Shown in pieces: positions 1-27,940 of a stretch of DNA of 41,871 nucleotides (positions are counted from its first letter, which is position 1; each line of letters starts with the position of its first letter). The DNA comes from Pseudomonadales bacterium. Lineage in GTDB: Bacteria; Pseudomonadota; Gammaproteobacteria; Pseudomonadales; JBFGWM01. Position numbers and translations under genes: made by a program. The stretch lies in assembly GCA_041623535.1 (NCBI GenBank), contig JBFJWR010000001.1:1-41871 (forward strand), written 5' to 3'. Under the pieces are notes generated by a model that was given only the letters and a program-made list of their open reading frames with translations, searched no databases and was not told where the DNA came from.

Positions 1-1749
1 CAGCGCGGTTACCGGCTGCAGCAGGGCGCGGCACCGCTGAAGGAAAACCTGGCGGCTGCCATCCTGTTGCGCGCGGACTGGCCGCAGCAGGCCGCCGCCG
101 GGCAGGCGCTGGTGGATCCCATGTGTGGGGTTGGCACGTTGCTGGTGGAAGCCGGCCTGATGGCCGCCGATGTGGCGCCCAACCTGCGGCGTACACACTG
201 GGGTTTCTCCAACTGGCTCGGACACGTGCCGGTGACCTGGCAACGCTTGCTGGACGAGGCGCAGGTGCGCGCCGATGCCGGACTTGCGCGACCACCGTTG
301 TGGATACGCGGCTACGAGGCCGATCCGCGCCTCATGCAGCCGGCACGCAACAATATTGAACGCGCCGGGCTTGCACACTGGATCAAGGTTTACCAGGGCG
401 AACTGGCATCTTTTGCGCCGCATCCCGACCAGGGACAGACCGGCCTGGTGGTGACCAACCCTCCCTACGGTCAGCGCCTGGGTGATGAAGCGAGCCTGGT
501 GTACCTCTATCAGCATCTGGGTGAACGACTGCGCCAGCAGTGTTGTGGCTGGCAGGCTGCCGTATTCACCGGCACGCCCGAACTGGGCAAGCGCATGGGC
601 CTGCGCACGCGCAAGCAGTATGCCTTCTGGAATGGCGCGTTGCCGTGTCGGCTGTTGCTGTTTGATGTCTGCGAGGAATCGTTTGTTGCGGCGTTGCGTG
701 GTCAGGGCGATCGCGAGAACCCGGCTGCCCCGCCGGAGAATCAGAATATCAGTGCCCCGAAACCGGTAGCGGAATCCCGCAGCGGAACCGGCGACGTGCC
801 GCCACTGAGTGCCGGTGCCGGCATGTTTGCCAACCGCCTCGAAAAGAACCTCAAGCGCCTTCGCAAGTGGGTGCAGCGCGAAGCGATACAGTGCTACCGG
901 GTCTACGACGCAGACATGCCCGAGTACGCGGTGGCGATTGACCTCTATCGGGACTGGGTGCATGTGCAGGAATATGCACCGCCCAAAACCGTGGACGAGA
1001 GTCGCGCGCGGGAACGCCTGCACGAAGTCCTGAGCGCCCTGCCATCCGTGCTGGGCGTGGCGCCGGACCGCGTCGTGATGAAGAAACGCCAGCGCCAGAC
1101 CGGCCTCGCGCAGTACGAACGGCAGGCTGAGCAACGCGAGTTCCTGCAGGTCGAGGAGGGACGCGCGCGACTGCTGGTCAACCTGCGGGATTACCTGGAT
1201 ACCGGCCTGTTCCTCGATCACCGGCCACTGCGCCTGCGCATCGGCAGGGAGGCCGCCGGCAAGCGTTTTCTCAACCTGTTCTGTTATACCGGCACGGCCA
1301 CCGTGCACGCGGCGCTGGGTGGCGCCCGTGATACCACCAGTGTGGACATGTCGCGCACCTACCTCGACTGGGCCAGTCGCAACCTGGCGCTCAATGGTTT
1401 CTCGGAGAAACACCGGCTGGTGCAGGGCGATGTGCTGGAGTGGTTGCCGGATGATGACGAGCGGTTTGACCTGATCCTGCTGGATCCGCCGACGTTCTCA
1501 AATTCCAAGCGCATGAGCGACGTCTTTGATGTGCAGAAAGATCATGCACACCTCGTGCGCCTGACCATGGCGCGCCTGGAGTCAGGCGGTGTGCTGTATT
1601 TCTCGAACAACTTCCGCAAATTCAAACTGGATGCCGTGCTGGAAACGGAATTCTCGGTGCAGGACATCAGCGCGCAGACGCTGGATCCGGACTTTCAGCG
1701 CCGGCCGGGTATCCACCACGCATGGCGTATCACCCATGCAGGCGCTTGA
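1..1749 (+). CDS. rlmL: 23S rRNA (guanine2445-N2 / guanine2069-N7) methyltransferase RlmL/RlmKL; 5' end lies outside the window
   Basis: The frame is open from nt 1 (QRGYRLQQGAAPLKENLAAAILL...), so the track start at 67 (TTG) is internal. It has two SAM-methyltransferase modules: VTNPPYGQRLG (NPPY class) and a C-terminal LNLFCYTGTATV ... LLDPPTFSNSK. The linker and overall length fit the fused RlmL/RlmK architecture. Confidence 0.85.
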   Translation, partial: QRGYRLQQGAAPLKENLAAAILLRADWPQQAAAGQALVDPMCGVGTLLVEAGLMAADVAPNLRRTHWGFSNWLGHVPVTWQRLLDEAQVRADAGLARPPLWIRGYEADPRLMQPARNNIERAGLAHWIKVYQGELASFAPHPDQGQTGLVVTNPPYGQRLGDEASLVYLYQHLGERLRQQCCGWQAAVFTGTPELGKRMGLRTRKQYAFWNGALPCRLLLFDVCEESFVAALRGQGDRENPAAPPENQNISAPKPVAESRSGTGDVPPLSAGAGMFANRLEKNLKRLRKWVQREAIQCYRVYDADMPEYAVAIDLYRDWVHVQEYAPPKTVDESRARERLHEVLSALPSVLGVAPDRVVMKKRQRQTGLAQYERQAEQREFLQVEEGRARLLVNLRDYLDTGLFLDHRPLRLRIGREAAGKRFLNLFCYTGTATVHAALGGARDTTSVDMSRTYLDWASRNLALNGFSEKHRLVQGDVLEWLPDDDERFDLILLDPPTFSNSKRMSDVFDVQKDHAHLVRLTMARLESGGVLYFSNNFRKFKLDAVLETEFSVQDISAQTLDPDFQRRPGIHHAWRITHAGA

Positions 1750-3769
1750 GCGGTTGCACTGATTCCATCTCGGCACACACCCGGTCCCGACCCTGGTTCT
1801 TGGCACGATACAGCATTTCATCCGCACGCAGCATGCAGGCTTCCAGTGTTTCTCCGGGCAGGTGACGGGTTACCCCGATACTGCAGGTGATGCTGATGCT
1901 TTCACCGCCCGTAATCGGCATGGATTGCGCGGCAATGGCTGTGCGTACTCGCTCCGCGAGCTTGCGCGCCTGCAACAGCGAGGTTTCCGGTAGCAGCACC
2001 AGGAATTCCTCACCACCGACACGCGCGCACACATCGCTTTCGCGTAGCACTTCGCGCAGTTCTTCTGCAAAGCGGACCAGCACCTGGTCGCCGGCAGCGT
2101 GTCCATGGCGGTCGTTCACGCGCTTGAAGAAATCCAGGTCCAGCATCATCAGGCTGGTGGGCAGCGTGGTGCGGTCGGCGCGCTTCAGTTCGGAATTAGC
2201 CTGCTCCAGGAAACTCGGCCGGTTGTGCAGGCCGGTGAGTTCATCGCGGTGCGCACGTCGTTCCAGTTCCACCAGCAGGCGTTCCACCTCGAGTTCGGCA
2301 CGCTTGCGCGCCTGGATGTCCTGTACGCAGCCGGTCAGGCGTATGACTTTCTGACTGGCGTCGTCGCGTATCACCTGGCCGCGCGTGGCGTACCAGTTCC
2401 AGTCTCCCTTGCGATTGCGCAGGCGGTATTCGATCTCGAAGCGGCTGCCAAAGCGCACCTGTTGCTGGAAGGCGGCCGCGCTGGCATTGGCGTCATCCGG
2501 GTGCATGGCCGCCAGGAAGTCCGCCAGGGTGCCGGGGAATTCGCTGCGCCGCAGCCCCTGGATTACGAGGAAGGATTCCGATATCCAGGTCCGCAGTCCT
2601 TCCTTGTCGTTCCACTCCCAGACGCCGTCGAGGCTGCTTTCCACGGCCTCGTGGAAGCGCGCTTCGGCCGCTTTCAGGGCTGACTCCGCCTGGTCACGAC
2701 GCCGGTGTTCCTGGTTCAGCACGCGGTAGAGTTTCTCCAGTTCGCCGGTGTGTTCCTTGAGCACTTCCTCCAGCACGTGGTGGGTGGCGAGTATGTCGTA
2801 GGCCATGCGTTCGGACTGTGAGTGTCCGTCAGCGCCGACTGCGGGTGCGGCATCGTCGGCGACGATCTCGTTGCTGGTTTCAGTCCGCATGTGCCGCAGC
2901 AGGCGTATGCCGTGCAGGTATGGCCACAGCGCGTGCAGGGTCATCAGCAACAGTGCCAGCGCCAGCGCAATCATGCCGGCCAGGTTGCCGAGCGCCTGGT
3001 GGCGCAGCAGGATCTGTTGCGCAGCTTGCCTGGGCACCGCGACTTCGACGCGCAACGGAAAATGCTGCGAATGCATCACGGCCGACAGTTCGCCGGCTTC
3101 CCAGTTAGCCGCACTGCCGGTTTTTCTGCGCACCAGGCGATTCGTGCCGCTTTCACTGTCCAGTGACAATTGGGTACGCAGGGCGGTGGTCGCAGCCAAT
3201 TGCGCATCGGGCAACAGCTTGGCCAGCGCCGTGCTGGCGAACGAATAATCAAGATGGCCCAGATTTGTGCGGCCCTGTTGCCACGGGATGCGCAGCGTCA
3301 GTTGCTTGTTGTGATAGCGGAGCAGGGCGCTGGGCAGGATGTCAGGCGACAGTTCGGTACTGACTGGTTCTTCCGGGCTGCCTATACGACTCACTTCCGA
3401 GGACGCCACCACGTTCCCGGTGCGATCCCGAAAATCGATGCGACCGGCCCAGGGCATTTCCGCTGCCAGTTTGCCGAAGGCCTGGTTCAGGCGCAGTTGC
3501 GCATGGTAATCACCGTTCCGGTCGAACTGCTGTATGGCGCGAATTGCGGCGGGGTCGGCACTGTGCCGATGGAGTACTGTCAGTGCGCTGGACAACTGGG
3601 TTTCCAGTTGCTTCAGACTGGTGTCGGCCAGTTGTTCTGCGGCGCCACGAGAGTCGGTTTCCGCCTGCGCGGCCGCCCACTGTCCGTAGAACCCGCCGGC
3701 CCCCCACGCCAGGGCTCCGAACATCAGGCTGATGACTGACCAACGTGCCAGGTTATTTCTGTTTGCCAC
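1730..3769 (-). CDS. Membrane sensor diguanylate cyclase (periplasmic sensor region, PAS, GGDEF)
   Basis: A GTG start at 3769 lies 8 nt after GGGAG. There is an N-terminal TM helix and a second TM segment (LAGMIALALALLLMTL). A PAS-like segment follows (DGVWEWNDKEG...IEYRLRNRKGDWNWY). The GGDEF domain carries RVGGEEFLVLL and an RxxD I-site (RESD) 5 aa upstream. Confidence 0.85.
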   Translation of the reverse strand: MANRNNLARWSVISLMFGALAWGAGGFYGQWAAAQAETDSRGAAEQLADTSLKQLETQLSSALTVLHRHSADPAAIRAIQQFDRNGDYHAQLRLNQAFGKLAAEMPWAGRIDFRDRTGNVVASSEVSRIGSPEEPVSTELSPDILPSALLRYHNKQLTLRIPWQQGRTNLGHLDYSFASTALAKLLPDAQLAATTALRTQLSLDSESGTNRLVRRKTGSAANWEAGELSAVMHSQHFPLRVEVAVPRQAAQQILLRHQALGNLAGMIALALALLLMTLHALWPYLHGIRLLRHMRTETSNEIVADDAAPAVGADGHSQSERMAYDILATHHVLEEVLKEHTGELEKLYRVLNQEHRRRDQAESALKAAEARFHEAVESSLDGVWEWNDKEGLRTWISESFLVIQGLRRSEFPGTLADFLAAMHPDDANASAAAFQQQVRFGSRFEIEYRLRNRKGDWNWYATRGQVIRDDASQKVIRLTGCVQDIQARKRAELEVERLLVELERRAHRDELTGLHNRPSFLEQANSELKRADRTTLPTSLMMLDLDFFKRVNDRHGHAAGDQVLVRFAEELREVLRESDVCARVGGEEFLVLLPETSLLQARKLAERVRTAIAAQSMPITGGESISITCSIGVTRHLPGETLEACMLRADEMLYRAKNQGRDRVCAEMESVQPLKRLHG

Positions 3770-5786: not shown

Positions 5787-7190
5787 TCAGGCGCTTTTTC
5801 TTTGTTTTTTCTGTAAGTACATGTTTTCGTCTGCCTGCTTGGTTGCGTCGACCAGGGACCTGGCGGCTGTGCGCGAGGAGACACCCAGCGAGGCAGCAAC
5901 GCCGGATGACGCCAGCGCGGCTTCAAGCCGGTCCAGGAGTTGCTGCGCAGAGTCTTCCGCGGTTTCAACCGCCAGAACTGCAAACTCATCCCCCCCAAGG
6001 CGCGCGGCGATATCCTCGCTGCGGATCGTTTCAGCAAGTGCTTGCGCTGCTTTCTGAATCAAGGCGTCCCCTGCATCGTGCCCCTGTTCGTCATTCACCT
6101 TTTTCAGGCCGTCCAGGTCGATGACGATGACCGCACTGGGGTGTCCGTAGCGTTTGCACCGACCTTCTTCGGCCTGCAGCAGCAGATCCCAGCCACGCCG
6201 GTTGTACAGGCCGGTGGGGCCATCCGTCATGGAGTCGAATTCTGCCCGCTTCTTCTCGCGCAGCAGGGTTTCGGCGAGCAGTTCGTTTTCCAGGATGGTG
6301 GCGAGGAAGCGGCATTCCTCCATCAGTTCCGGCAGGTCGCGCGAAATGTTCTTATCCAGTGGTTGCGGATCGATGGCACACAATGTTCCAAACAATTCGC
6401 CACTGCCGCGGCAGATCGGAATGCCGAGATAGGAGGTGATAGGCAACTGGTCGGCGACGTTGGAGTCCCGGTATAAAGGCACTTCATCCTTGTTGTTGGT
6501 GAACATCGGACCATGGTCCTCGACCATCAATGCGCAGAAAGAGTCACTCCACCTGAGCAGATCGCCGGCCTTGATGCCGTAGTCACGGTCGGCGGCCTGT
6601 AACACCAGCCAGTCTTTGCCCTGGCGGCGGGTCATCATGACCAGGCCGAATCCGTGCTTGCGTTGCAGGCGCTCGATCAGGCCCTGGGATGCTTCGGCAA
6701 ACCCGCCATAGGGGGTCACCGGGCGGGAGAATTTTTGCGCAGCCGAAGGCGGGGCGACGTCGGTACGCTTCTGCGTTACTTCGATGAGAATACTGGCCAG
6801 CAGTGGTGGCGTGATGGCTTCCTTGTGGAGGAAATGGATGGCTCCACTGGAGATCAGGTTCTGGGTTTCCGCATGCAGGAGCTCGGGAGCCGCGCCGGAA
6901 ACAAGGATTTTCGGGATATCGTTGCCGGCAAGAACCAGGTGGTTGAGGAAGTTGCTGCCGGTCACGTACTTGTCAGTGGGCGGCATGCGGTTGTCCACGA
7001 TCAGTACGTCTGGTGCATGACCAGACGTAGCGGAAAGGATGGACTCTGCCGCCGCAGTGCCGTTACAGGCTGTCAGTCGCACCTGCACATTATCCAGATC
7101 GCCCAGGTAATCACGCATGATGGCCTGATCATCCTGATCGTCTTCTATGTACAGCGCATGGATCTCATTCACCGGGTAATAATAACCCAC
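5787..7190 (-). CDS. Response-regulator diguanylate cyclase (REC-GAF-GGDEF)
   Basis: The REC domain shows ALYIEDDQDD...LIVDNRMP. The central GAF-like region shows ITSYLGIPICRGSGELFGTLCAIDP. The GGDEF domain carries ARLGGDEFAVL with the RSED I-site 5 aa upstream. The start is GTG at 7190. Confidence 0.85.
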   Translation of the reverse strand: MGYYYPVNEIHALYIEDDQDDQAIMRDYLGDLDNVQVRLTACNGTAAAESILSATSGHAPDVLIVDNRMPPTDKYVTGSNFLNHLVLAGNDIPKILVSGAAPELLHAETQNLISSGAIHFLHKEAITPPLLASILIEVTQKRTDVAPPSAAQKFSRPVTPYGGFAEASQGLIERLQRKHGFGLVMMTRRQGKDWLVLQAADRDYGIKAGDLLRWSDSFCALMVEDHGPMFTNNKDEVPLYRDSNVADQLPITSYLGIPICRGSGELFGTLCAIDPQPLDKNISRDLPELMEECRFLATILENELLAETLLREKKRAEFDSMTDGPTGLYNRRGWDLLLQAEEGRCKRYGHPSAVIVIDLDGLKKVNDEQGHDAGDALIQKAAQALAETIRSEDIAARLGGDEFAVLAVETAEDSAQQLLDRLEAALASSGVAASLGVSSRTAARSLVDATKQADENMYLQKKQRKSA

Positions 7191-7244: not shown

Positions 7245-8066
7245 TCAGGAGGCTTTCCAGTTCCCGGCCTGTTCCAGGCTGTGTACCAGGTTTTCGGTGT
7301 TGATCTGGTGCTTGGACAGCAAGCTCAGGTTTTGCAGTTGCAGCGCGTCCCTGGCGTCTTCATCCAGATCGGTATCGTTGTGGCCGGTGACCAGCAACAT
7401 GGGCTTATCCACATTGCGCCGCTTGAGTTCCTGCACGAATTCAATGCCGGATGCATTGCCGATGTGATAGTCGATCAGGAAGCCGTCATAGGAGCACTCA
7501 TCCAGTCGCTGCATGGCCTGGTCCAGGGAACTCGCCCAGTCCACCTGGAAGCGGTAACTGGAACTCATCTGCAGCAGGGTGCGGGCAAGTTCGAAATCTT
7601 CCGAGTCGTCATCAAGAACCAGCAGGCGCATTCTGCGGCGCAGCACGGCGCGTATTGTCTGGTGCAGTATTGCCTGGGTCAGGTCACGTTTCTTCAGGAA
7701 TACGATCTTGCCGGTGCTGATGTCCTCCAGTGCCCCGGTGTCGAGGTCGATGGATTCCCGTCCGGTGATCAGGATGGCCGGTGCCCCGGCATGTTCCTCC
7801 TGAATCTGTTTCAGGAAATCGCCGCCGGTCGCATCCCCCTCAAGATGGTAGTCAACGATAAACAGGTCGTATTCTCCGACCGCGGAGTAAGCACGCGCAA
7901 GGGCCGCAGACTTGGCGCGCTCCACGAAATACATGTCTTCGGTATCACGCGAGATCGACTGCATCAGATGCTTCAGGGTGTTGAAGTCATCCTCGTCATC
8001 TTCGACACAAAGAACCTTGATTATTACCATGGCCGTCAATCTGCTTTGCGGAATGTTGAAACTCAT
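7245..8066 (-). CDS. Tandem-receiver response regulator (REC-REC, no output domain)
   Basis: Two CheY-like modules are present: VLCVEDDEDDF...LFIVDYHL...ILITG and LLVLDDDSEDF...FLIDYHIG...LLVTG. An alternative ATG at 8030 is possible. Confidence 0.75.
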   Translation of the reverse strand: MSFNIPQSRLTAMVIIKVLCVEDDEDDFNTLKHLMQSISRDTEDMYFVERAKSAALARAYSAVGEYDLFIVDYHLEGDATGGDFLKQIQEEHAGAPAILITGRESIDLDTGALEDISTGKIVFLKKRDLTQAILHQTIRAVLRRRMRLLVLDDDSEDFELARTLLQMSSSYRFQVDWASSLDQAMQRLDECSYDGFLIDYHIGNASGIEFVQELKRRNVDKPMLLVTGHNDTDLDEDARDALQLQNLSLLSKHQINTENLVHSLEQAGNWKAS

Positions 8067-9213: not shown

Positions 9214-10761
9214 ATGGAATCATTGCTGACGACAGTCTCGTTGTCGCTGATGGATGTCGGGATGCCGGTACAGGCGCCCCTGGTTCTGCTGGCAGTTCTG
9301 CTGCTGCTCCGTGGTGCCTGGTCCATACGCATGTCCCTGCGCACCACGCTGTTGCTGTACGGGTTCTCCATACTGATGATTCTCATCAGTGCCGCGCTGC
9401 ACAGTAGCGGCTGGACGGGTGGGGCGGGCAGCACCCGCAATATTGGTGTGCTGCTCATGGGGCTGGCGCTGATCCGGCTGACCGGGCAGGCGGTTTTTCA
9501 CCTGTTGTTGCCGCGACTGAATATCACTCCGCCGCGCATTCTCGAAGATGTACTGGTTTTCATCGCCTACCTGTTATGGGGTTTTATCCGGCTCTCACAG
9601 ATAGGCCTGGATCTCAGCAGCATAGTCACCACCTCGGCGGTGATTACCGGCGTACTGGCCTTTTCGCTGCAGGAGACCATCGGCAACATCCTCGGCGGCG
9701 TGACCCTGCAGATGGACGACTCCATCCGTGTCGGTGACTGGATACAGGTCGGTGAACTGGTCGGGCGCATCGTGGATATCCGCTGGCGGTCCACGGCCGT
9801 GGAAACGCGCAACTGGGAAACCGTGATCTTCCCCAACAGCCTGCTGACCAAGCGCGAGTTCTCCATACTCGGCCGGCGTACCGGCGAACCGATCCAGTGG
9901 CGGCGCTGGATCTGGTTCAGTGTCGGCCTGGACACCTCGCCCCGGCGCGTGACGCGCGTGATTGAAGAAGCACTGCGCAAGGCCAACGTCCGGCACGTGG
10001 CCAGCCGACCGGCTCCCGACTGCATCACCATGGATATAAACGACAGCGTGGTGCGTTACGCGGTGCGCTACTGGCTGACCGACCTGGCGGTGGATGACCC
10101 GACCGATTCGGCGATCCGCAGCCGGGTGTATGCGGCGCTCAAGCGGGCCGGTATTCGCCTCGCCCTTCCTGGCCAGCAACTGCATATCGTGAGCGAGGAC
10201 GAGCACCAGGAAGCACGCCAGCGATTGCAGAACATTGAACAGCGCGTGGCGCTGTTACGAGGGGTGGGACTGTTTCGCAGCCTGGACGAGGACGAACTGC
10301 AGAAACTGGCCGGCAACCTGCTTTACACGCCCTTTGTCGCAGACGACGTGGTTACAGCACAGGGTGCGACGGCGCACTGGCTGTATATCCTTGTCGATGG
10401 CGCGGTCGAAGTGGTGCTGGATTCAGGTTCCGGGCGGCGACGGACACTGGCGCGACTGGAAGCGGGACACCGTGACAGTTACTTCGGCGAGATGGGCCTG
10501 CTTACCGGCGCGCCGCGCACCGCCAGCGTGATCGCTGTCACCGATGTGGAGTGCTACCGGCTGTCCCGCGACGGTTTCGAGGAAGTGCTTACAGCACGAC
10601 CAGCCATCGCCGAGGAAATTTCCACGATTATCGCCGAGCGGCGGGCTGACCTGGCGGTGGCGCAGAACCAACTGGACGAAGCCGCCCATGAGGCGATGAG
10701 CAAAACCGAGCAGCGGGAAATCCTGCAGCGTATACGGCGGTTTTTCAGTCTGAAGGGCTGA
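9214..10761 (+). CDS. Mechanosensitive (MscS-family) channel fused to a C-terminal cyclic-nucleotide-binding domain
   Basis: There are several N-terminal TM helices. The MscS core reads IGNILGGVTLQMDDSIRVGDWIQVGELVGRIVDIRWRSTAVETRNWETVIFPNSLL. The C-terminal cNMP-binding fold reads FGEMGLLTGAPRTASVIAVTDVECYRL. Confidence 0.8.
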   Translation: MESLLTTVSLSLMDVGMPVQAPLVLLAVLLLLRGAWSIRMSLRTTLLLYGFSILMILISAALHSSGWTGGAGSTRNIGVLLMGLALIRLTGQAVFHLLLPRLNITPPRILEDVLVFIAYLLWGFIRLSQIGLDLSSIVTTSAVITGVLAFSLQETIGNILGGVTLQMDDSIRVGDWIQVGELVGRIVDIRWRSTAVETRNWETVIFPNSLLTKREFSILGRRTGEPIQWRRWIWFSVGLDTSPRRVTRVIEEALRKANVRHVASRPAPDCITMDINDSVVRYAVRYWLTDLAVDDPTDSAIRSRVYAALKRAGIRLALPGQQLHIVSEDEHQEARQRLQNIEQRVALLRGVGLFRSLDEDELQKLAGNLLYTPFVADDVVTAQGATAHWLYILVDGAVEVVLDSGSGRRRTLARLEAGHRDSYFGEMGLLTGAPRTASVIAVTDVECYRLSRDGFEEVLTARPAIAEEISTIIAERRADLAVAQNQLDEAAHEAMSKTEQREILQRIRRFFSLKG

Positions 10762-11044
10762 TCTTCGAGGCGCTGATTTCACCGCTGGCGGCGCCCTGAC
10801 GGTTCCCGCGAGCGTATCCCCGGCCAACGAAAGCGTCTTTTCCTGCCCAAATACGTGTTTGCGACGCATCTGCTCCATGATCCGAAAATGGCAATATGGC
10901 GCATCAGGATGTAAGAAATAGGTATCCATATTGGTCTGGATGGGTTATCGTTGCTCTCTTATTGGTCTCTGCGCCAATATCCAGCCATCTGCGTGCGGTC
11001 ATAATTTCGTCATCCGGCAACTCAATTTCAACAGGGGAATTCAT

Positions 11045-12634
11045 ATGAAGGACGCTCATATTTCATCGTCAGCGACCAGCCTGGTTCGCAAACGAACCAT
11101 CAATTTTATGCTGGCTTCATGGGTTACCGTTTTGGCCGGGTGTGCGACAACCGCTGATGATACGGCAAGCCTGAACAATGATTACGCCAGGCAGGTTGCG
11201 CAACTGCAGAAGGAAGTGGATGCAACGGCTTCCGAAAATGAACGCCTGCGCACCAGTTTGCAGGAAAAACAGGCTGCCACGGCGTCTGCCGGTGCTGCAG
11301 TGCCCAATCCGATGGGTGACCTGTTGCCGCCGAATGCCAAGGCAGGCGAATGTTATGCACGTGTTTGGGTAGACGCTACCTACCGGGACAAAACCAAGGA
11401 TGTGCTCGTGCGCGAAGCAAGTGAGCGCGTCGAGATCGTTCCGGCCGAGTACCAGAACGTGACGGAACAGGTGTTGGTCAAAGAAGCCTCCACCCGCGTC
11501 GAAGCCATTCCGGCAGTCTGGGGATGGGAAGAAGAGCGGGTCCTGACCCAGGAAGCTCAGCGTATCTGGCGTGTGGGTCTGGGCAATGCGGCACCGGCGA
11601 ATTCCGAGTTGCTGAATGCTGCCAAAAAACACGGTATTGACCTGGATGCAGCCACACCGGGCATGTGTTTCCACGAGCACTACCAGGCTGCGCAATTCAG
11701 TACTGAAAACAAGCAGGTTGTCGTCAGCGAAGCCGTGGATGTGATCCAGGCGACCGACGCTGAATATCGCTGGGTAGAGAAGCAACGCCTCGTTGCAGAA
11801 GCCTCTTTCCGCATGGAAGAAGTTCCCGCGCAGTACGAATGGGTTGAAGAGCAGGTAATTGATAAGCCCGCACATACCATCTGGAAGAAGGGCACGGGCC
11901 CGGTTCAGCGGATCGACGAAGCGACCGGTGAGATCATGTGCCTGGTCGAAGTGCCGGCCACCTTCAAGACCTTGCGCAGGCGTGCCCTGGTCAGTCCGGC
12001 AACTTCACGCAAGATTGAAATTCCGGCGCAGTATGAGACGGTGAAAGTGCGTGAACTGGTCAAGCAGGCCGGTGAACTGAAGAACAACATACCGGAAAAA
12101 TACGAAACTGTTTCGGTGAGCAAGAAAGTTGCGGACCAGAAGTTCCTCTGGCACGAAGTCCATAATATGGATCACCCCAAGCAGACCCGTACCGGCAACC
12201 AGATCTGCCTGACGGAAACGCCGGCCAAATACCAGACTGTGAAGCGCCGGGTTGTGAAGCAGCCGGCCACCACACGTGTCATCGACATTCCGGCAGAATA
12301 CAAAACCGCCACGGTGCGCAAGCTGGTTCGCAAGGCTGAAGAAAAGCGCATCGCGATTCCCGCCAAGTATGAAACGGTTCAACTCAAGGAATTGGAAAAG
12401 GAAGGCCATATGCAGTGGCGCTCGATACTTTGCGAAACCAACATGACGGGAACGCGTATTTCCAGCATTCAGCGCGCCCTGAAGGATCTTGGTTTCGATC
12501 CCGGTCCGATTGACGGGGTCGTCGGTGCGCAAACCATCGCCGCATTCAATGCATTCCAGCGCGAACGCGGGCTGCCGGTAGATCGCTACCTGAACGTTGA
12601 GACCATTGAAGCCCTCGGCGTATCTGCACGCTGA
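11045..12634 (+). CDS. Lipoprotein with coiled-coil, about 10 degenerate 'IPAxYxTV' repeats and a C-terminal peptidoglycan-binding (PG_binding_1) domain
   Basis: The ATG at 11045 is followed by a signal peptide with lipobox LAGC. The repeat region lies at about 11351-12415. The C-terminus (ALKDLGFDPGPIDGVVGAQTIAAFNAFQRERGLPVDRYLNVETIEALG) is a classic PG-binding domain. Confidence 0.75.
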   Translation: MKDAHISSSATSLVRKRTINFMLASWVTVLAGCATTADDTASLNNDYARQVAQLQKEVDATASENERLRTSLQEKQAATASAGAAVPNPMGDLLPPNAKAGECYARVWVDATYRDKTKDVLVREASERVEIVPAEYQNVTEQVLVKEASTRVEAIPAVWGWEEERVLTQEAQRIWRVGLGNAAPANSELLNAAKKHGIDLDAATPGMCFHEHYQAAQFSTENKQVVVSEAVDVIQATDAEYRWVEKQRLVAEASFRMEEVPAQYEWVEEQVIDKPAHTIWKKGTGPVQRIDEATGEIMCLVEVPATFKTLRRRALVSPATSRKIEIPAQYETVKVRELVKQAGELKNNIPEKYETVSVSKKVADQKFLWHEVHNMDHPKQTRTGNQICLTETPAKYQTVKRRVVKQPATTRVIDIPAEYKTATVRKLVRKAEEKRIAIPAKYETVQLKELEKEGHMQWRSILCETNMTGTRISSIQRALKDLGFDPGPIDGVVGAQTIAAFNAFQRERGLPVDRYLNVETIEALGVSAR

Positions 12635-12655
12635 GAAGTTGACTGACCGGCTGAT

Positions 12656-12688
12656 GGGCCGTGCGGAATTCCCGCACGGCCCATTTTT
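12656..12688 (+). terminator. Rho-independent terminator of the lipoprotein gene
   Basis: A perfect 11-bp stem (GGGCCGTGCGG / CCGCACGGCCC) with a 5-nt loop (AATTC) is followed by A-TTTTT. It begins 22 nt after the stop codon. Confidence 0.7.
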
Positions 12689-12810
12689 CGTTCAAGGCTC
12701 CGAATCTTCTTGTCACGCTGGCGGGGAAGCGGCACCCCGCAGCGCGCCATACACTGCGGGGGCCTGACCACGACTAAACCCTGCGGGGGAGTGTCCTGGC
12801 TACCTGTATT

Positions 12811-15800
12811 CTAGCCTTTCAGCCTGTCCTCGAGGTTGAATTGCGCAGTCAGGTGACGGGCCTTGTTAGTGGCGCCCCATTCGATATATGCACGACAACT
12901 CTCGGCGATACACTGGTCGGCTTCATCGTGGTGCCCTTCGGCGGCCAGCCAGCGTCCGCGGCATTCCGCGATGTAAGCCAGATCACTGGTAAATCCCTGT
13001 TCCCGTGCCGCATCGCGGCTCGCGGTGTAGAGTCCATCTACTGCGCGCGGCCGATTCTCTATCCGCGCGAGTTCCGCCTGGATCAGGTGGAGTTTGGACA
13101 GGAAGTTGAAGGGCGCGAATTGACACCAGTGTTCCATCTTCTTGTGCGATGCAAGAATCAGCTTCTTCAATTTTCCACGCTCGTTGCGGTCGGCGTCCGG
13201 ATACCTGGCCAGGCGAGCGAGGGCCGTGTGAAAGTGAAGATACGGTTCGTCGATGAGCCCCTGCACGTTCTCGATGTAGGATTCCGCCTCGAGCGCGAGC
13301 TCACAGGCACGGTTGTAGTCCCCGAACAGCCAGGCAAGCCGCATACTGGAAGCCGCGCTGATACCCAGGCCGGTGCGATCGTCAGAAGCAAGTTGCTCTT
13401 GCACCTGCTTTGCTTCGTCATACCATGGCCCCTGCATGCGGGCAGGATCACGGATGTCTGCATCAGCGAGGTTGGCGACGTACTGGGTCCAGATGCTCAT
13501 GTAGGTATGTGGCGTGATCTGATTGAGATTACGCACGGCCTCCAGGTACATCGGCATACTCCTGACCAGGCCCTGGAGATCTTTCCCGCAGTAAATTGCC
13601 GTCACGAAGTAGGAAATTGCACAATACGAGCCGTATTCGAAATCACCGTGATCAATACCGAACTGGTAGCCCTTCAGAAACGGATCGAGCGTATCGCCTA
13701 TTGGGCGCTTCCAGTGATGGATGAATTTGAAAAAATTGAAATAGGTTCTGGCGTGATACTCGTAGTCCTTGAACAGGTCCAGAACCCGCATGCCGGCCTG
13801 CCCGTAGCGGAAAGCCTGTTCATAATTACCCGTAGCCTGGGACACGATCAATCCATAAATAACCAAGGCGCTTGCCGATTCCGCTGACAAGCCATATTTC
13901 TGGGTCAGTTGTACCTGCCGGAGCACCACGATGGGAAACAGGTTGGGGCTGGCAATGTAGGACGCGGAGATCAGGCGACTGAGAATACGCATGGCTGATG
14001 ACACCCGTTGATCAGTGATCTCGGGCATGTCCGGAAAACTATCCGGTTTCGTATTCAGCAGCAGCATCCGCGTGTGGAGCAGGTGGCGCACCACGGACAA
14101 CTTTCCGGGATCCGGTTGCAGGCGAATCCCCAGGCTCCTGAGCACCGGTACCGCCTCCATGATAGCGTCCTTCATGCGGTTATTGGCCAGCAGTGCATCA
14201 ATGCGAATCTCGTGGCTGCGGACGTTGACCAATGTATTTTTCGAATGACGCAGGACTTCGCCGGTCAGCGAATGCATGGCTTGCTGGTTGCCGCTCAGGT
14301 AGGCGGCCTCGGCTGCTTCGTGGTGAAGATCAATCGTCAGTGAGCGCGCCGATTGCCAGGCATTTTTAGGCAGCATCTTTACGCCCAGGGACAGGAACTC
14401 AAAAGCCGATTGGTAGGCTGCCGATGCCATGGCTCGCTTGCCGGCGCGCAGGTTCAGTTCTGCGACCTGTACCAGTTCCTGTTCCTCGTAAATCAGGGTT
14501 CGTGCAACATTGAAATGATTTACGATTGAGAACAGATTCTTATCCGGAATATTTGCCTCACATGCTTCGACCAGCAGTCTGCCAATCTGCAGGTGGTTCA
14601 GCAGCCGCTCCTGCTGGCCAATCATTTCATAAGCAGCCTGCTGTACCCGGTCGTGCAGAAACGTATCACTGGCATTGATCATGGAGTAAGACCGTTCCTG
14701 CATCTGGGTCCCTTCGACGCAGCGCAGAAGATCATGGTTCGCATTGTCGGGGACCAACAGTCCCGCCTCGACAGCCGGCCACAATGCGGTTGCGATCTCT
14801 GTCATGGTCTGGCCGCATACCAGCGCCAGCGTGCGAATATCGAACGTGCTGCCAATGCAGGCACCGTGACGCAGGGCCTGCTGCGTGCGTCGCGGCAGCG
14901 AACTGATGCGATCGATGAGCAATTCGACGACGTTTTCAGAGACCGCTTTGCCGGCGATTTCCTGATCGTCCCAACACCATGCGTGCTGAATCGGATCGAA
15001 ACGTATATCGCCGCCGCTGTGCAAGGTCCGAATCAGGGTGCTGCAGGAAAAAGGGTTGCCGAGTGTCTTTTTCAGCACCAAGGCCGACAACGTGTTCAGT
15101 TTTTCGGTCGATTGCCGAAGCGTGTCTGCGAGCAGTTCGCGAATGTGCTCCTGGCTCAGGGGCGGCAGTTCGATGCGGGTGCTGGGTGTGCCTGACTTGT
15201 CGACTTCCTGCAGGACCCTGGTTAACGAATGTGTATCATCAACCTCGTTGTCGCGGAAAGCGCCGATGACCAGGAAATGGTTGTGGGCAGGACTGGTCAG
15301 GCAGTCCTGCATGAGTTCCAGGCTGCCGGCATCCGCCCATTGCAGGTCATCCAGGAACAGCACCAGGGGATGGTCGGCGCTGGTGAAAACCTGGATGAAA
15401 TCCCGCAGGCAATTGCGGAAGCGATTCTCGTTTTCTGCGGGATTCAGAAACCGTACGGGTTCACATGCACCCAGCAGGCGTTGCAGATCAGGGATTACCT
15501 CGACGACCACGCCGGCATTAACCCCGAGTCTTTCCCGAATCCGATCACGCCAGATGCCGCGCTCGGCCTCGGTCATGTTCAGGATCTGTCCCACCATGCC
15601 CGAGAATGCACTGACCACCGCAGAAAACGGTGTGGCCCGGTCGAATTGCTCAAACTTTCCGGTCAACAGGATGCCACCTGCCTCCAGCACAGGTTCCCGC
15701 AATTCTCCGATCAGGCTGGTTTTCCCCATGCCCGAAAAACCGCTCACCAGGGACAGCCGCCTGCCACCATCGGCCACGGCACGGAAGTCCTGCAGAATCT

Positions 15801-16737
15801 GTTCAATCTGCTGTTCACGACCATACAGTTTTTCGGGCAGGTGAAACTCTGCAGAGATATCCTGCATGCCCAGGTCAAATTTCGGGATACTGCATGTTGC
15901 TCGGAACTCAGTGAGGCAGCGGCTGATGTCGGCCAGCAGCCCAACCGCGGTCTGATAACGATCTTCCGGTTTCTTCTCCAGCAGGCGATGAACGATTGAA
16001 CAAAGCATTTCCGGCAGGTCAGGGCGCAGTTCCCTAAGTGGCGGCGCTTCCGCCGTGATGATTTCATTCAGGACAGAAACCGGATCGTCACTGGCGTAGG
16101 GCAGGTCTTTTGTCAGCATCCAGTAAAACAGGACGCCGAGTGAGTAAAAATCGGAACGATGGTCGACCTTGCGGGGTAGTCTCCCTGTCTGCTCGGGCGA
16201 CATGAAAAGCAGATCGCCGCTCAGTGCATGCCAATGATTCGCCGCTTGCTGCACCAGTTGCGTAGAGCGCCGCAGGCCGTGCAATATGACCTGGTTTTCG
16301 GCTTCATCCCAATGTACGTGTGCGGGTGAAATTGCCCGGTAAATAATCCCTTTTTTATGCAGAGACCCCAGTATTTCGGCCAGGGACCATGCAATGTTCA
16401 GCGCCTGGGCGGTGGTGATTTTCCGGTCTGTAACCCACTTGCGCAGTGGTACCGCGTTATGTGAGCGAAGGATGAGCAATGGGTTCAGGTCATCATCGAA
16501 AAAGTCGATCACCGGGGGGATGCCGGCTACGCCCTGGAGCAGCTTGCGTGTGGCATACTCCTGATGTAACTGCGCGAGTGCATGGGCGTCGTGATAGTCT
16601 GGGCTCAATTGCTCAATGACGACCGCCAGGCCATCAGACTCTCGCTCGGCCGCGAAGAGATTGCGGTCATCGATGCGCGCGATGAATTTGCCGTTCCGGT
16701 ACCCCGGCAGGTTGGGCGCTTGTGGCGCGTTTTCCAT
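12811..16737 (-). CDS. STAND-type signalling protein: degenerate Ser/Thr-kinase-like domain, AAA_16 P-loop NTPase and a long helical/TPR-like region
   Basis: The kinase-like fold has the family-typical MSPEQTGR...VDHRSDFYSLGV...RYQTAVGLLADISRC. Walker A is GFSGMGKTS and Walker B is LVLFLDDLQWAD. About 800 aa of helical repeats follow. The start is either the ATG at 16737 (MENAPQ) or the ATG at 16800. Confidence 0.8.
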   Translation of the reverse strand: MENAPQAPNLPGYRNGKFIARIDDRNLFAAERESDGLAVVIEQLSPDYHDAHALAQLHQEYATRKLLQGVAGIPPVIDFFDDDLNPLLILRSHNAVPLRKWVTDRKITTAQALNIAWSLAEILGSLHKKGIIYRAISPAHVHWDEAENQVILHGLRRSTQLVQQAANHWHALSGDLLFMSPEQTGRLPRKVDHRSDFYSLGVLFYWMLTKDLPYASDDPVSVLNEIITAEAPPLRELRPDLPEMLCSIVHRLLEKKPEDRYQTAVGLLADISRCLTEFRATCSIPKFDLGMQDISAEFHLPEKLYGREQQIEQILQDFRAVADGGRRLSLVSGFSGMGKTSLIGELREPVLEAGGILLTGKFEQFDRATPFSAVVSAFSGMVGQILNMTEAERGIWRDRIRERLGVNAGVVVEVIPDLQRLLGACEPVRFLNPAENENRFRNCLRDFIQVFTSADHPLVLFLDDLQWADAGSLELMQDCLTSPAHNHFLVIGAFRDNEVDDTHSLTRVLQEVDKSGTPSTRIELPPLSQEHIRELLADTLRQSTEKLNTLSALVLKKTLGNPFSCSTLIRTLHSGGDIRFDPIQHAWCWDDQEIAGKAVSENVVELLIDRISSLPRRTQQALRHGACIGSTFDIRTLALVCGQTMTEIATALWPAVEAGLLVPDNANHDLLRCVEGTQMQERSYSMINASDTFLHDRVQQAAYEMIGQQERLLNHLQIGRLLVEACEANIPDKNLFSIVNHFNVARTLIYEEQELVQVAELNLRAGKRAMASAAYQSAFEFLSLGVKMLPKNAWQSARSLTIDLHHEAAEAAYLSGNQQAMHSLTGEVLRHSKNTLVNVRSHEIRIDALLANNRMKDAIMEAVPVLRSLGIRLQPDPGKLSVVRHLLHTRMLLLNTKPDSFPDMPEITDQRVSSAMRILSRLISASYIASPNLFPIVVLRQVQLTQKYGLSAESASALVIYGLIVSQATGNYEQAFRYGQAGMRVLDLFKDYEYHARTYFNFFKFIHHWKRPIGDTLDPFLKGYQFGIDHGDFEYGSYCAISYFVTAIYCGKDLQGLVRSMPMYLEAVRNLNQITPHTYMSIWTQYVANLADADIRDPARMQGPWYDEAKQVQEQLASDDRTGLGISAASSMRLAWLFGDYNRACELALEAESYIENVQGLIDEPYLHFHTALARLARYPDADRNERGKLKKLILASHKKMEHWCQFAPFNFLSKLHLIQAELARIENRPRAVDGLYTASRDAAREQGFTSDLAYIAECRGRWLAAEGHHDEADQCIAESCRAYIEWGATNKARHLTAQFNLEDRLKG

Positions 16738-16987
16738 CGTGGGCCAATACTCCCGAGCCAACGCCCCGCAAACACCAGGGCGTATGAGCATCCTAGACAT
16801 TTCAGGGTCGTCCGGCCAGTCACCAAACGGCTTTCCGGGCTGTGGTGAATATTGGCGGGATGGCAGCGGTGCATTGACTCACAATGGACGACGGGTGCCT
16901 GGTTGGATGCCGCCATTATCGAATTCGCGCTCAACGAAGTGCCCACTACTGGATGCATTCCCCAATGAGCCCCACGAGGTTTCCAAC

Positions 16988-26049: not shown

Positions 26050-27009
26050 TTAGGGCGGTGGGGAGTCGGGGTCAAATCCTGTTGCACTTTCGCTGCTGTA
26101 AATTTCTCCCTGCAGGGTGCGGCCGTCCATTCGGCGTACGTCCTGCATGGCGGAAATCTTGCCCAGGCGGTAGGCGCGCCGATAGAGTTCGCGCGCGACC
26201 TCGCGCTCTCCGCGCCCCTCCATGAGGCGCGCAGCCTGGAATGCGCCCTCGGCCACCTCCCGGTCGGAGGCCTTTAAAAACTGCTCCAGCGCCTGCCGGG
26301 GATCTTTGCGCACGCCATCACCCACGAGGTAAATAAAGCCCAGCGCCAGGTGGGCGGGGCCGTAACCCTTTTCCGCAGACTGCTGGTAGAGCGTGATTGC
26401 GCGCTCATTATTCGTCGCGTAGACGCGACCCCGGTGGTGCAGGGTGCCAAGGTGGTACATGGCCGGGCCATTGCCCTGTGCCGCGGCATTCTCATAGAGA
26501 CGCGCTGCGCGCATGTAGTTTTGTTGCAGGCCGATGCCATTCTCGTACGACCAGCCCAGGAACAACTGCCCTTCGGCATTGCCGCTTTCGGCGGCCTTGC
26601 GCGCCCAGTGTACGGACAGCGTCGGGTTCGGCTCGACGCCCAGCCCATGGTGATAGCGATGGGCCATTTCGGCCTGGGCGTCGGTATTGCCCAACTTGGC
26701 GGCCGAGTAGTAATGCCTGGCTGCCATGTTCTCGTTTTTTTCCACGCCGGTGCCCGAGGAATATGCCTGGGCAAGACGCAGCAGCGATTTTTCGTGGTGG
26801 GGACTGCCCGCATTAGCGGCGTTCTGTTCCAGCCAGGCGATTGCATCCGCTGCCCGTGGGCCACCGAGTGCGGCATCCGCCTCAATCAGTGAGCCCACCG
26901 AGCCGCGGTATTCAGATGCCGGGGGCTTCTCTGGCGCGCTCCCGCAACCGGGAAGCAGCAGGACGGGCAGAAGTGCCAGGCAGCCCAGCGATGCGAGCCG
27001 CTTATTCAT
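26050..27009 (-). CDS. Sel1-repeat (SLR/TPR-like) lipoprotein
   Basis: The signal peptide has lipobox LLPGC. Repeated Sel1 units follow (AQAEMAHRYHHGLGVEPNPTLSVHWARKAAESGNAEGQLFLGWSYENGIGLQQN...). Its start overlaps the stop of the upstream paralogue by 8 nt. Confidence 0.8.
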   Translation of the reverse strand: MNKRLASLGCLALLPVLLLPGCGSAPEKPPASEYRGSVGSLIEADAALGGPRAADAIAWLEQNAANAGSPHHEKSLLRLAQAYSSGTGVEKNENMAARHYYSAAKLGNTDAQAEMAHRYHHGLGVEPNPTLSVHWARKAAESGNAEGQLFLGWSYENGIGLQQNYMRAARLYENAAAQGNGPAMYHLGTLHHRGRVYATNNERAITLYQQSAEKGYGPAHLALGFIYLVGDGVRKDPRQALEQFLKASDREVAEGAFQAARLMEGRGEREVARELYRRAYRLGKISAMQDVRRMDGRTLQGEIYSSESATGFDPDSPPP

Positions 27010-27940
27010 GGCCGGCCTTTTCGCGGATGCGGGCCAGCGCCTCGCCGGCCTGGGCGATTCCTGCGGCTTCTGCCCGCAGGTAAAGCTGATGGGCGGCTTC
27101 TAGGTCACCGTCGCTCTCCTTCACCTGTCCGAGGAAGAATGCGCCCAGGGGGTGCCCGCGGTCGGCTGCCTTGCTCAGCCAGTCACGCGCCTGTTGCTTG
27201 TCCTGCGGTACCTTTTCGCCCTGGAAGTAGAGCAGGCCCAGCTGGATCTGGGCGGCGGCAAAACCCTTTGCTGCGGATTCGCGGTAGAGATCCAGCGCCC
27301 GGTTGATGTCCTCCGGCACACCATCGCCATTCTGGTACAGCACGGCGAGGTTGTTCTGGGCGATGGGGTCACCGCCCGCGGCCGCTGCCTCGTAGTAGCG
27401 GACGGCCGCGGCCAGGTCTTTCTCAACACCAATGCCGAAATGATGCGCCCAGCCCATGTACTGCTGGCCCTGCGGATTGCCCTGTTCGGCGGCGCGCCCG
27501 GCCCAGTACAAAATCTGATCGGTGTTGCGCTCCACGCCGACCGCGAAATCGTAACGGCGTGCCATTTCCGCCTGCGACTCGGCATCACCGCCATAAGCCG
27601 CAGCACGGATGTAGTCGGAACCGATTTCCAGGTTTTTCTCCACACCCAGACCGCGTGAATACATCACGCCCAGCGCCTTGCTCGCGGCAACCTGGTCGGG
27701 ATGGTCCGGCTGCTCCGCGATGTACTGGAACAGGTCCAGGGCGGCGACATAGTCCCGCTCGTTGAATGCCTGCACGGCGGCGCGCAATTCCTCGCCAACG
27801 GACTGGGGCTGAGCCGGGCTTGCCGGCGACTGGGACGGCTGCGGAGCGCCGGATTCCTGCGTGGGTGCCGCGCAACCCGCCAGCAGCGCGAAGTACAGCG
27901 CTGTGGCAGGCAGGCGGAGCCGGTGTGATATTGCCGCCAT
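27002..27940 (-). CDS. Sel1-repeat (SLR/TPR-like) lipoprotein, paralogue of the downstream gene
   Basis: The lipobox is LLAGC. Sel1 units read SQAEMARRYDFAVGVERNTDQILYWAGRAAEQGNPQGQQYMGWAHHFGIGVEKD... The ATG shares one base with the aminotransferase TGA (TGATG). Confidence 0.8.
   Translation of the reverse strand: MAAISHRLRLPATALYFALLAGCAAPTQESGAPQPSQSPASPAQPQSVGEELRAAVQAFNERDYVAALDLFQYIAEQPDHPDQVAASKALGVMYSRGLGVEKNLEIGSDYIRAAAYGGDAESQAEMARRYDFAVGVERNTDQILYWAGRAAEQGNPQGQQYMGWAHHFGIGVEKDLAAAVRYYEAAAAGGDPIAQNNLAVLYQNGDGVPEDINRALDLYRESAAKGFAAAQIQLGLLYFQGEKVPQDKQQARDWLSKAADRGHPLGAFFLGQVKESDGDLEAAHQLYLRAEAAGIAQAGEALARIREKAGHE

Follow-up and report, generated by a model that had tools for sequence, protein, structure and literature searches.

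The gene described here lies in a stretch of 41,871 nucleotides from a Pseudomonadales bacterium (positions 1 to 41,871 of contig JBFJWR010000001.1, assembly GCA_041623535.1), referred to below as the window. The three-part protein that it encodes combines a Hanks-type kinase fold with an AAA_16 NTPase of the STAND class and an array of tetratricopeptide repeats (TPRs). By the sequence definition the protein is a pseudokinase, in which the residues expected of a competent kinase are replaced, and it ends after the repeats, where its relatives continue toward an enzymatic output module. An earlier note, made from the sequence alone, had called it a pseudokinase-scaffolded STAND switch with an unknown readout. 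The analysis supports this as its best description.

The open reading frame (ORF) is intact on the minus strand over positions 12811-16800. In the ORF list and its translation, the first ATG at 16800 gives 1329 amino acids. The product is likely 1308 amino acids long, because two database proteins both begin at M22 (16737). One of these (P0002) is a 1308-aa protein that is 100% identical and recorded from a 28.1-kb contig. The other (P0003, from GCA_041592775.1) is an orthologue of 1308 aa that is 53% identical, has the same end point and also lacks an output domain. Residue numbers given here follow the 1329-aa frame from the ATG at 16800. The gene is present in single copy in its genome, a metagenome-assembled genome that is 85% complete (2.39 Mb, 258 contigs). 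UvrB encoded in the window is 72-76% identical to its counterparts in many Gammaproteobacteria, which places the host among the uncultured members of that class. Pfam recognizes Pkinase at residues 56-283 (E 1e-14; 55 bits, cut-off 31.7) and AAA_16 at residues 324-512 (E 1e-35). A weak match to TPR_CHK1 covers residues 1161-1287, and no further Pfam domain was found in the protein. NCBIfam returned generic kinase-domain matches and partial matches to kinase/STAND fusions. The protein is predicted to be cytoplasmic, as its AlphaFold2 (AF2) models contain no membrane-type helix. The motif strings quoted in the earlier note were all placed by translation at their predicted sites.

The kinase-like domain was compared with PknB by sequence and by structure. 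A phmmer search against PknB gave an E value of 1.6e-19. The AF2 model of residues 22-1221, built from 38 family sequences, reached a mean pLDDT of 86 and a pTM of 0.75, and its kinase part superposes on PknB (5u94) with a TM score of 0.89 and an rmsd of 2.7 A. Profile and predicted structure both recognize the Hanks-type kinase fold, which by these measures is kept in the window protein.

The catalytic columns were read in three ways: by phmmer against solved PknB structures, by a MAFFT alignment of 120 family N-termini and by a family hidden Markov model (HMM). The relatives counted are 118 among the best 120 family hits listed, with the orthologue P0003 excluded. The beta3 Lys is replaced by Glu63 (Table 1). 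In the catalytic loop, the His of the HxD motif, present in all 118 relatives and in P0003, is Tyr154. The catalytic Asp, also present in 118/118 relatives, is Ala156 and is likewise Ala in P0003, and the loop Asn, kept in 117 of the 118 relatives and in P0003, is His161. Neither Asp nor Glu occurs in residues 169-181, where 116/118 relatives carry the DFG Asp. The register of this segment shifts by two residues between methods (LHG by phmmer, GLR by MAFFT and the HMM), and neither register gives an Asp. The Lys-to-Glu, Asp-to-Ala and Asn-to-His replacements and the loss of DFG, as proposed in the earlier note, were thus borne out by all three methods. A change of register that would restore K, D, N and D was looked for and restored none of them, and in none of the three alignments is a compensating K, D or N found three residues or fewer from a catalytic column. 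The earlier note had also asked whether orthologues share the substitutions. P0003 has neither the beta3 Lys (it has His) nor the catalytic Asp, keeps the Asn and has no aligned DFG Asp, with one Asp a single residue off register.

Outside the catalytic columns, much of the domain is recognizable. SPEQTGR, DxRSDFYSLG and RYQ...C are invariant columns across the family alignment, in agreement with the hallmarks that the earlier note had listed. The absence of a Gly-rich loop, which that note had counted among the defects, is true of the window protein and is also family-wide, hence not specific: the consensus reads I-Y-E-[GS]-x-x-[TS]-x-V-Y-R also where the catalytic set is complete. The catalytic and activation loops are where divergence from the family is concentrated, with 22% identity compared with 58% among family members. 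Glu81 in alphaC and Arg155 in the HRD motif are retained. These two residues would suit a kinase-like domain that binds nucleotide in a non-canonical manner (as in ULK4 or DLHK-type proteins) or carries out SelO/SidJ-type chemistry, and that would then be a ligand sensor or an atypical enzyme. Both orthologues are also basic in beta1/beta2 (K38/R, R42/R) where the family mostly has Glu, and the review of the CP1 kinase family, discussed below, notes that some of its members may still bind ATP (PMC12599244). Several features speak against such a pocket. The two orthologues differ in their replacement of the beta3 Lys (Glu and His), so that no substitute is conserved; the DFG segment holds no acidic residue; the metal-binding Asn is His in the window protein; neither orthologue has the family Arg that follows beta2 (VYR); and no alternative conserved polar set is common to the two proteins in the pocket region. 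Atypical nucleotide binding or chemistry is therefore considered improbable.

The NTPase core was described as intact in the earlier note, and this was confirmed: the family-invariant columns G354, G357, G359, K360, D484, D485 and R516 are all present, as are all other NTPase and TPR family invariants. A second AF2 model, of residues 301-1329, has a pLDDT of 87 and shows the arm as all-helical repeats. When the same residues were searched with Foldseek, the best PDB match was 6mfv (PH0952; E 2e-9, 868 columns); next came ORC/Cdc6 and plant receptors with nucleotide-binding and leucine-rich repeat domains (NLRs). A PDB sequence search with the nucleotide-binding oligomerization domain (NOD) and TPR part gave no match at E <= 1. 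A STAND NTPase with a TPR arm is supported both by profile and by fold.

The protein stops 18 residues past the family WGA motif, at the point where relatives enter a linker to GAF. The earlier note had stated that kinase-AAA_16 proteins are normally continued by GAF and histidine-kinase modules. Indeed, 116/118 relatives, 1500-2300 aa long, carry GAF plus an enzyme module, either HisKA/HATPase, a class III cyclase, PP2C, GGDEF or a sigma-54 AAA domain. No Pfam match to GAF, HisKA or HATPase was found in the window protein, as that note had predicted, and it is not a trifunctional kinase of the HstK type. The 176-nt spacer that follows its stop codon is too short to hold a lost output domain. 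Two relatives, P0015 (1391 aa) and P0051 (1373 aa), were considered as output-less members with an active kinase and rejected; both end inside the first GAF strand and are cut-off proteins.

Could the gene be decaying, a pseudogene left by truncation of a trifunctional kinase and without a function of its own? Catalytic residues and output are both lost, and the stem that follows the split from intact relatives is long (0.83 substitutions per site). A short family member elsewhere (L103, see below) is probably a truncated gene. The comparison with P0003 argues in the other direction. The frame of 3.9 kb has remained open in two lineages at 53% identity, with the same end position, and the two proteins are 50% identical in the kinase domain and 50-57% in the other domains. 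The proportion of nonsynonymous differences (pN) is half that of synonymous differences (pS) in every domain. Nei-Gojobori (pN/pS-based) dN/dS values are about 0.27 (kinase domain) and 0.26 (NTPase), and are rough because dS is saturated (pS 0.68). The NTPase and TPR invariants are kept, and the identical protein P0002 is on record. By these sequence comparisons, the gene is under purifying selection, with a kinase domain as constrained as the NTPase, and is judged not to be a relic. Decay is accordingly given very little credence. In the P+1/alphaF/alphaG region (residues 197-245), the two orthologues reach 80% identity.

The lineage is small. P0003 was the only orthologue found by a word-indexed search, in which the next match was 36% identical; a partial copy of it (L004) is present in a genome of the same family. 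A profile search of 1.84 billion representative proteins found no representative of the clade outside the cluster of the window protein itself, and a scan of genome contigs with the window protein found no further clade member. No orthologue was found in the genomes of the same genus that were searched. One of these genomes encodes an AAA_16-TPR protein of 993 aa (L009, G001:C16:13769-16687) that lacks a kinase domain and is 25% identical to residues 320-1312 of the window protein. On the contig of P0003 (L013:2-1767), an ORF for a type IV pilin-like protein (N-terminus FALIELMMVVAIIGILAAVA) and one for a DUF445-like membrane protein lie upstream on the same strand, and neither has a counterpart in the window.

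Kinase domains linked to STAND ATPases have been catalogued before. In the atlas of serine/threonine kinases from bacteria (bSTKs; O'Boyle et al., bioRxiv 10.1101/2025.01.12.632604), the CP1 family comprises proteins of cyanobacteria and proteobacteria that have no membrane segment, are always linked to a COG3899 predicted ATPase and often carry GAF or PAS modules (PMC12599244; 10.1101/2025.01.12.632604). The Lys is absent from 34% of CP1 members, the Asp from 37% and the DFG Asp from 17%, and all three motifs are lost in Q8F6Y5 of Leptospira interrogans (PMC12599244; bioRxiv 10.1101/2025.01.12.632604). No CP1 member has been experimentally characterized (PMC12599244; bioRxiv 10.1101/2025.01.12.632604). 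The window protein has the same kinase-COG3899-type layout, with AAA_16 directly after the kinase domain, is cytosolic and comes from a gammaproteobacterial host. It is assigned to CP1 by this architecture and by homology to 'trifunctional' proteins. Published descriptions of CP1 stress GAF/FhlA or PAS, whereas the window protein and its orthologue end after the TPR arm.

The cyanobacterial dual kinases (cbSTKIII, with HstK/Alr2258 and Pkn40/Pkn41; PMC2176072) are 33-36% identical to the window protein over 95-98% of its length. NCBI annotates them as trifunctional Ser/Thr kinase/ATP-binding protein/sensor histidine kinase. SPEQTGR, DxRSDFYSLG, RYQ, KLYGRE, Walker A/B and WGA are common to both. 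The dual kinases differ from the window protein in keeping K, D, N and D (118/118, 118/118, 117/118 and 116/118) and in having 400-900 more residues, which lead into GAF and HisKA/HATPase, cyclase, PP2C, GGDEF or sigma-54 modules. In PH0952 of Pyrococcus horikoshii (6MFV), at 11% sequence identity, a P-loop NOD is likewise followed by a helical/winged-helix arm and then a TPR superhelix. Neither PH0952 nor MalT has a kinase-like domain, and MalT, unlike the window protein, has a DNA-binding output. PknK of M. tuberculosis is a Hanks kinase followed by an AAA_16/MalT-like ATPase and TPRs with nothing after the repeats, so that its N-terminal kinase acts as effector for the STAND module. That kinase is active, whereas the window protein has a dead kinase at the effector position. 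In the atlas, PknK forms a bSTK family of its own (10.1101/2025.01.12.632604).

How unusual is a dead kinase domain in this family? Among the best 150 representatives of the profile search of 1.84 billion proteins, 35/188 kinase-like domains lack at least one catalytic residue. The top non-self matches of the pseudokinase profile (P0122, P0123 and P0124) are proteins of ~2500 aa with five to six tandem kinase-like domains, most of which lack one or more catalytic residues. In 40 genomes of the same genus, family and order, four of the six long members whose catalytic columns were read (L005, L006, L007 and L008) have a degraded catalytic loop. In a sample of Gammaproteobacteria, family members were found in 23/400 genomes, and the catalytic Asp was missing in 13 of the 29 genes examined. 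The rarity implied by the earlier note was therefore not upheld: dead kinase domains are common in the family and published as CP1, and output-less members with a dead kinase occur in other Gammaproteobacteria. What is new is one more lineage with a minimal output-less form, in a family already catalogued computationally.

Three output-less members were found in the gammaproteobacterial sample, L102 (1327 aa), L103 (1131 aa) and L104 (1313 aa). L102 and L104 look genuine, and both lack the catalytic Asp. L103 (G379:C1:2656573-2659542), which has HGN and GFG motifs, ends where the transposase gene (DDE_Tnp_1) of an insertion sequence begins and is probably truncated by insertion. The catalytic Asp is lost in 3/3 output-less compared with 10/26 output-bearing members (Fisher one-sided p = 0.08), or in 2/2 when the truncated L103 is left out (p = 0.17). 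A link between output loss and catalytic loss is suggestive only, as the genomes in the count are not independent. One could go further and regard the pseudokinase-NOD-TPR core as a self-sufficient device that arose repeatedly through coupled loss of output and catalysis, and that would form a single-chain NTP-gated oligomer recruiting other proteins in the manner of ZAR1-RKS1. The basis for this is that both plausible output-less members and the window clade lack the catalytic Asp, compared with 10/26 output-bearing members. It is put forward as a long shot.

Two output-bearing members resemble the window protein in their substitutions. L131 (G415:C1:1383333-1387202; 1703 aa) has E/A/H/G at the catalytic columns, as in the window protein, and L132 (G411:C1:1711655-1715536; 1803 aa) has E/S/H/G. 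The pattern may be convergent, as these proteins do not group with the window protein on the NOD-TPR tree. A common origin with other fully dead members such as L131 was rejected, because this tree separates them. In the NOD-TPR trees, the window protein (P0001) and P0003 form a fully supported pair that adjoins catalytically intact 1770-aa proteins with GAF and histidine-kinase modules, apart from the other dead or output-less members; the placement of the pair is weakly supported (0.71-0.77). Dead domains group together in a tree of the kinase domain only and do not in the NOD-TPR tree, and their grouping is probably long-branch attraction. The most economical reading of these trees is that output and catalysis were lost independently in this small lineage.

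By analogy with other STAND proteins, the window protein is probably a nucleotide-gated oligomerizing switch, in which the pseudokinase serves as a non-catalytic protein-binding scaffold. As in MalT, PH0952 and NLRs, a signal bound by the TPR arm would release an ADP-locked closed form, and the released form would bind ATP and oligomerize. The only output left would be non-catalytic: clustered pseudokinase domains could scaffold a partner protein encoded by another gene, bind it or sequester it. The docking surface would be the P+1 loop, alphaF and alphaG of the C-lobe, the best conserved part of the domain. Several points weigh against this proposal. Oligomerization, nucleotide switching and scaffolding are all carried over from MalT, PH0952 and NLRs. 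No partner gene is indicated, the flanking genes being divergent and convergent; the loci of the window gene and P0003 share no synteny; and the neighbors of L102, L103 and L104 are unrelated, with no gene shared among the output-less members. The C-lobe motifs are invariant family-wide whatever the output, and may reflect intramolecular packing rather than partner binding. The saturated dS and the tree support noted above also count on this side.

The pseudokinase may instead act in trans, as the allosteric partner of an active Hanks or histidine kinase in a STAND-controlled heterodimer resembling KSR-RAF or HER3-EGFR. Bacterial Hanks kinase domains such as PknB dimerize back to back, GAF-histidine-kinase modules are found in cis in the relatives closest to the protein, and both the window and the genome are rich in two-component and cyclic di-GMP proteins. 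However, in a Pfam search of the genome (85% complete), no gene but the window gene itself scored above the cut-off for Pkinase. The genome holds no family paralogue, no GAF-histidine-kinase gene is adjacent, and none of the neighboring genes recurs beside the orthologue or beside other output-less members. Since no candidate kinase was found, this explanation is weakened and regarded as unlikely, if somewhat less so than atypical nucleotide binding.

The scaffolding switch was also weighed against a role in defense. The protein could be an NLR-like anti-phage or conflict sensor whose dead kinase is an integrated decoy or adaptor, like the plant ZAR1-RKS1/ZED1 pseudokinase pairs. The STAND-TPR architecture and the plant NLR resistosomes among the fold matches are compatible with this, and four PADLOC kinase models (PD-T4-6, mad6, MkoA and PglW) match the protein. 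These matches are restricted to residues ~49-311, that is, to the kinase domain, and reflect the generic kinase fold; no defense-specific model covers the NTPase-TPR part. The protein was not found to belong to Avs, bNACHT, PD-T4-6, Mokosh, BREX PglW or MADS. The window neighbors are housekeeping or signaling genes, with no defense island, integrase or mobile element among them, and no killing effector was seen, whether in cis or in the vicinity. The relatives closest to the protein are sensory kinases encoded in the core genomes of cyanobacteria and other phyla. A defense role is thus highly improbable.

Bacterial pseudokinases have been catalogued and are essentially untested. The output-less members are the simplest of the kinase-COG3899 STAND proteins, made up of an intact NTPase, a dead kinase fold and a TPR arm, one of each, and could be a minimal model for what a non-phosphorylating kinase-like domain adds to a STAND switch. 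The present case is a single genomic observation that adds one lineage to a known family and leaves current understanding unchanged.

The gene is presumed to be monocistronic, because a convergent gene lies downstream and a divergent gene upstream (Table 1). The earlier note had placed the next gene 170 nt away. That gene is indeed close by, with a spacer of 176 nt, and is convergent. Directly after the lipoprotein gene, this shared spacer contains a 14-bp GC-rich hairpin (12653-12685) followed by TTTTCG, which could terminate both transcripts. No sigma-70 consensus was found in the divergent promoter region 16738-16987.

Table 1. Features of the window gene, its product and its surroundings (positions in the window; residues in the 1329-aa frame)
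Feature	Position	Strand	Basis or remark
Pseudokinase-NTPase-TPR protein gene	12811..16737	(-)	1308 aa, probable start M22; stop codon 12811-12813
Pseudokinase domain, residues 30-300	15901..16713	(-)	Pfam Pkinase, PknB alignment, AF2 model
Glu63 in AVVIE at the beta3 (VAIK) Lys column	16612..16614	(-)	K in 118/118 relatives; orthologue His
Catalytic-loop equivalent YRAISPAH	16318..16341	(-)	family H-K/R-D-I-K/N-P-x-N; orthologue HRALSPHN
DFG-equivalent segment LHGLR, no acidic residue	16270..16284	(-)	DFG Asp in 116/118 relatives
SPEQTGR, family-invariant P+1/APE-region motif	16180..16200	(-)	retained with alphaF motif DHRSDFYSLG
AAA_16 STAND NTPase core, residues 324-512	15265..15831	(-)	Pfam; same coordinates from genome search
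Walker A GFSGMGKTS	15715..15741	(-)	invariant family columns
Walker B LVLFLDDLQW	15337..15366	(-)	invariant family columns
Family-invariant Arg516	within 15247-15261	(-)	just C-terminal of AAA_16 core
Winged-helix/helical arm and TPR-like superhelix, residues 531-1329	12814..15210	(-)	AF2 model, fold match, weak TPR_CHK1
Spacer, 176 nt	12635..12810	.	stop codon to end of convergent PG_binding_1 lipoprotein gene
PG_binding_1 lipoprotein gene	10931-12634	(+)	convergent with STAND gene
Divergent promoter region	16738..16987	.	shared with Zn-dependent dehydrogenase/quinone-oxidoreductase gene (ATG 16988, +)
Response regulator-PP2C(SpoIIE)-HATPase_c_2 fusion	35456-37141	(-)	
Hybrid histidine kinase with two receiver stretches	31303-33378	(-)	
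PAS-GGDEF gene	1730-3769		
Receiver (REC)-GAF-GGDEF gene	5787-7190		
Double-REC gene	7245-8066		
MscS-cNMP gene	9214-10761		

The contig is unusually dense in signaling genes. Two overlapping adjacent Sel1-repeat genes, at 26050-27009 (-) and 27002-27940 (-), are located beside an aminotransferase gene and uvrB.

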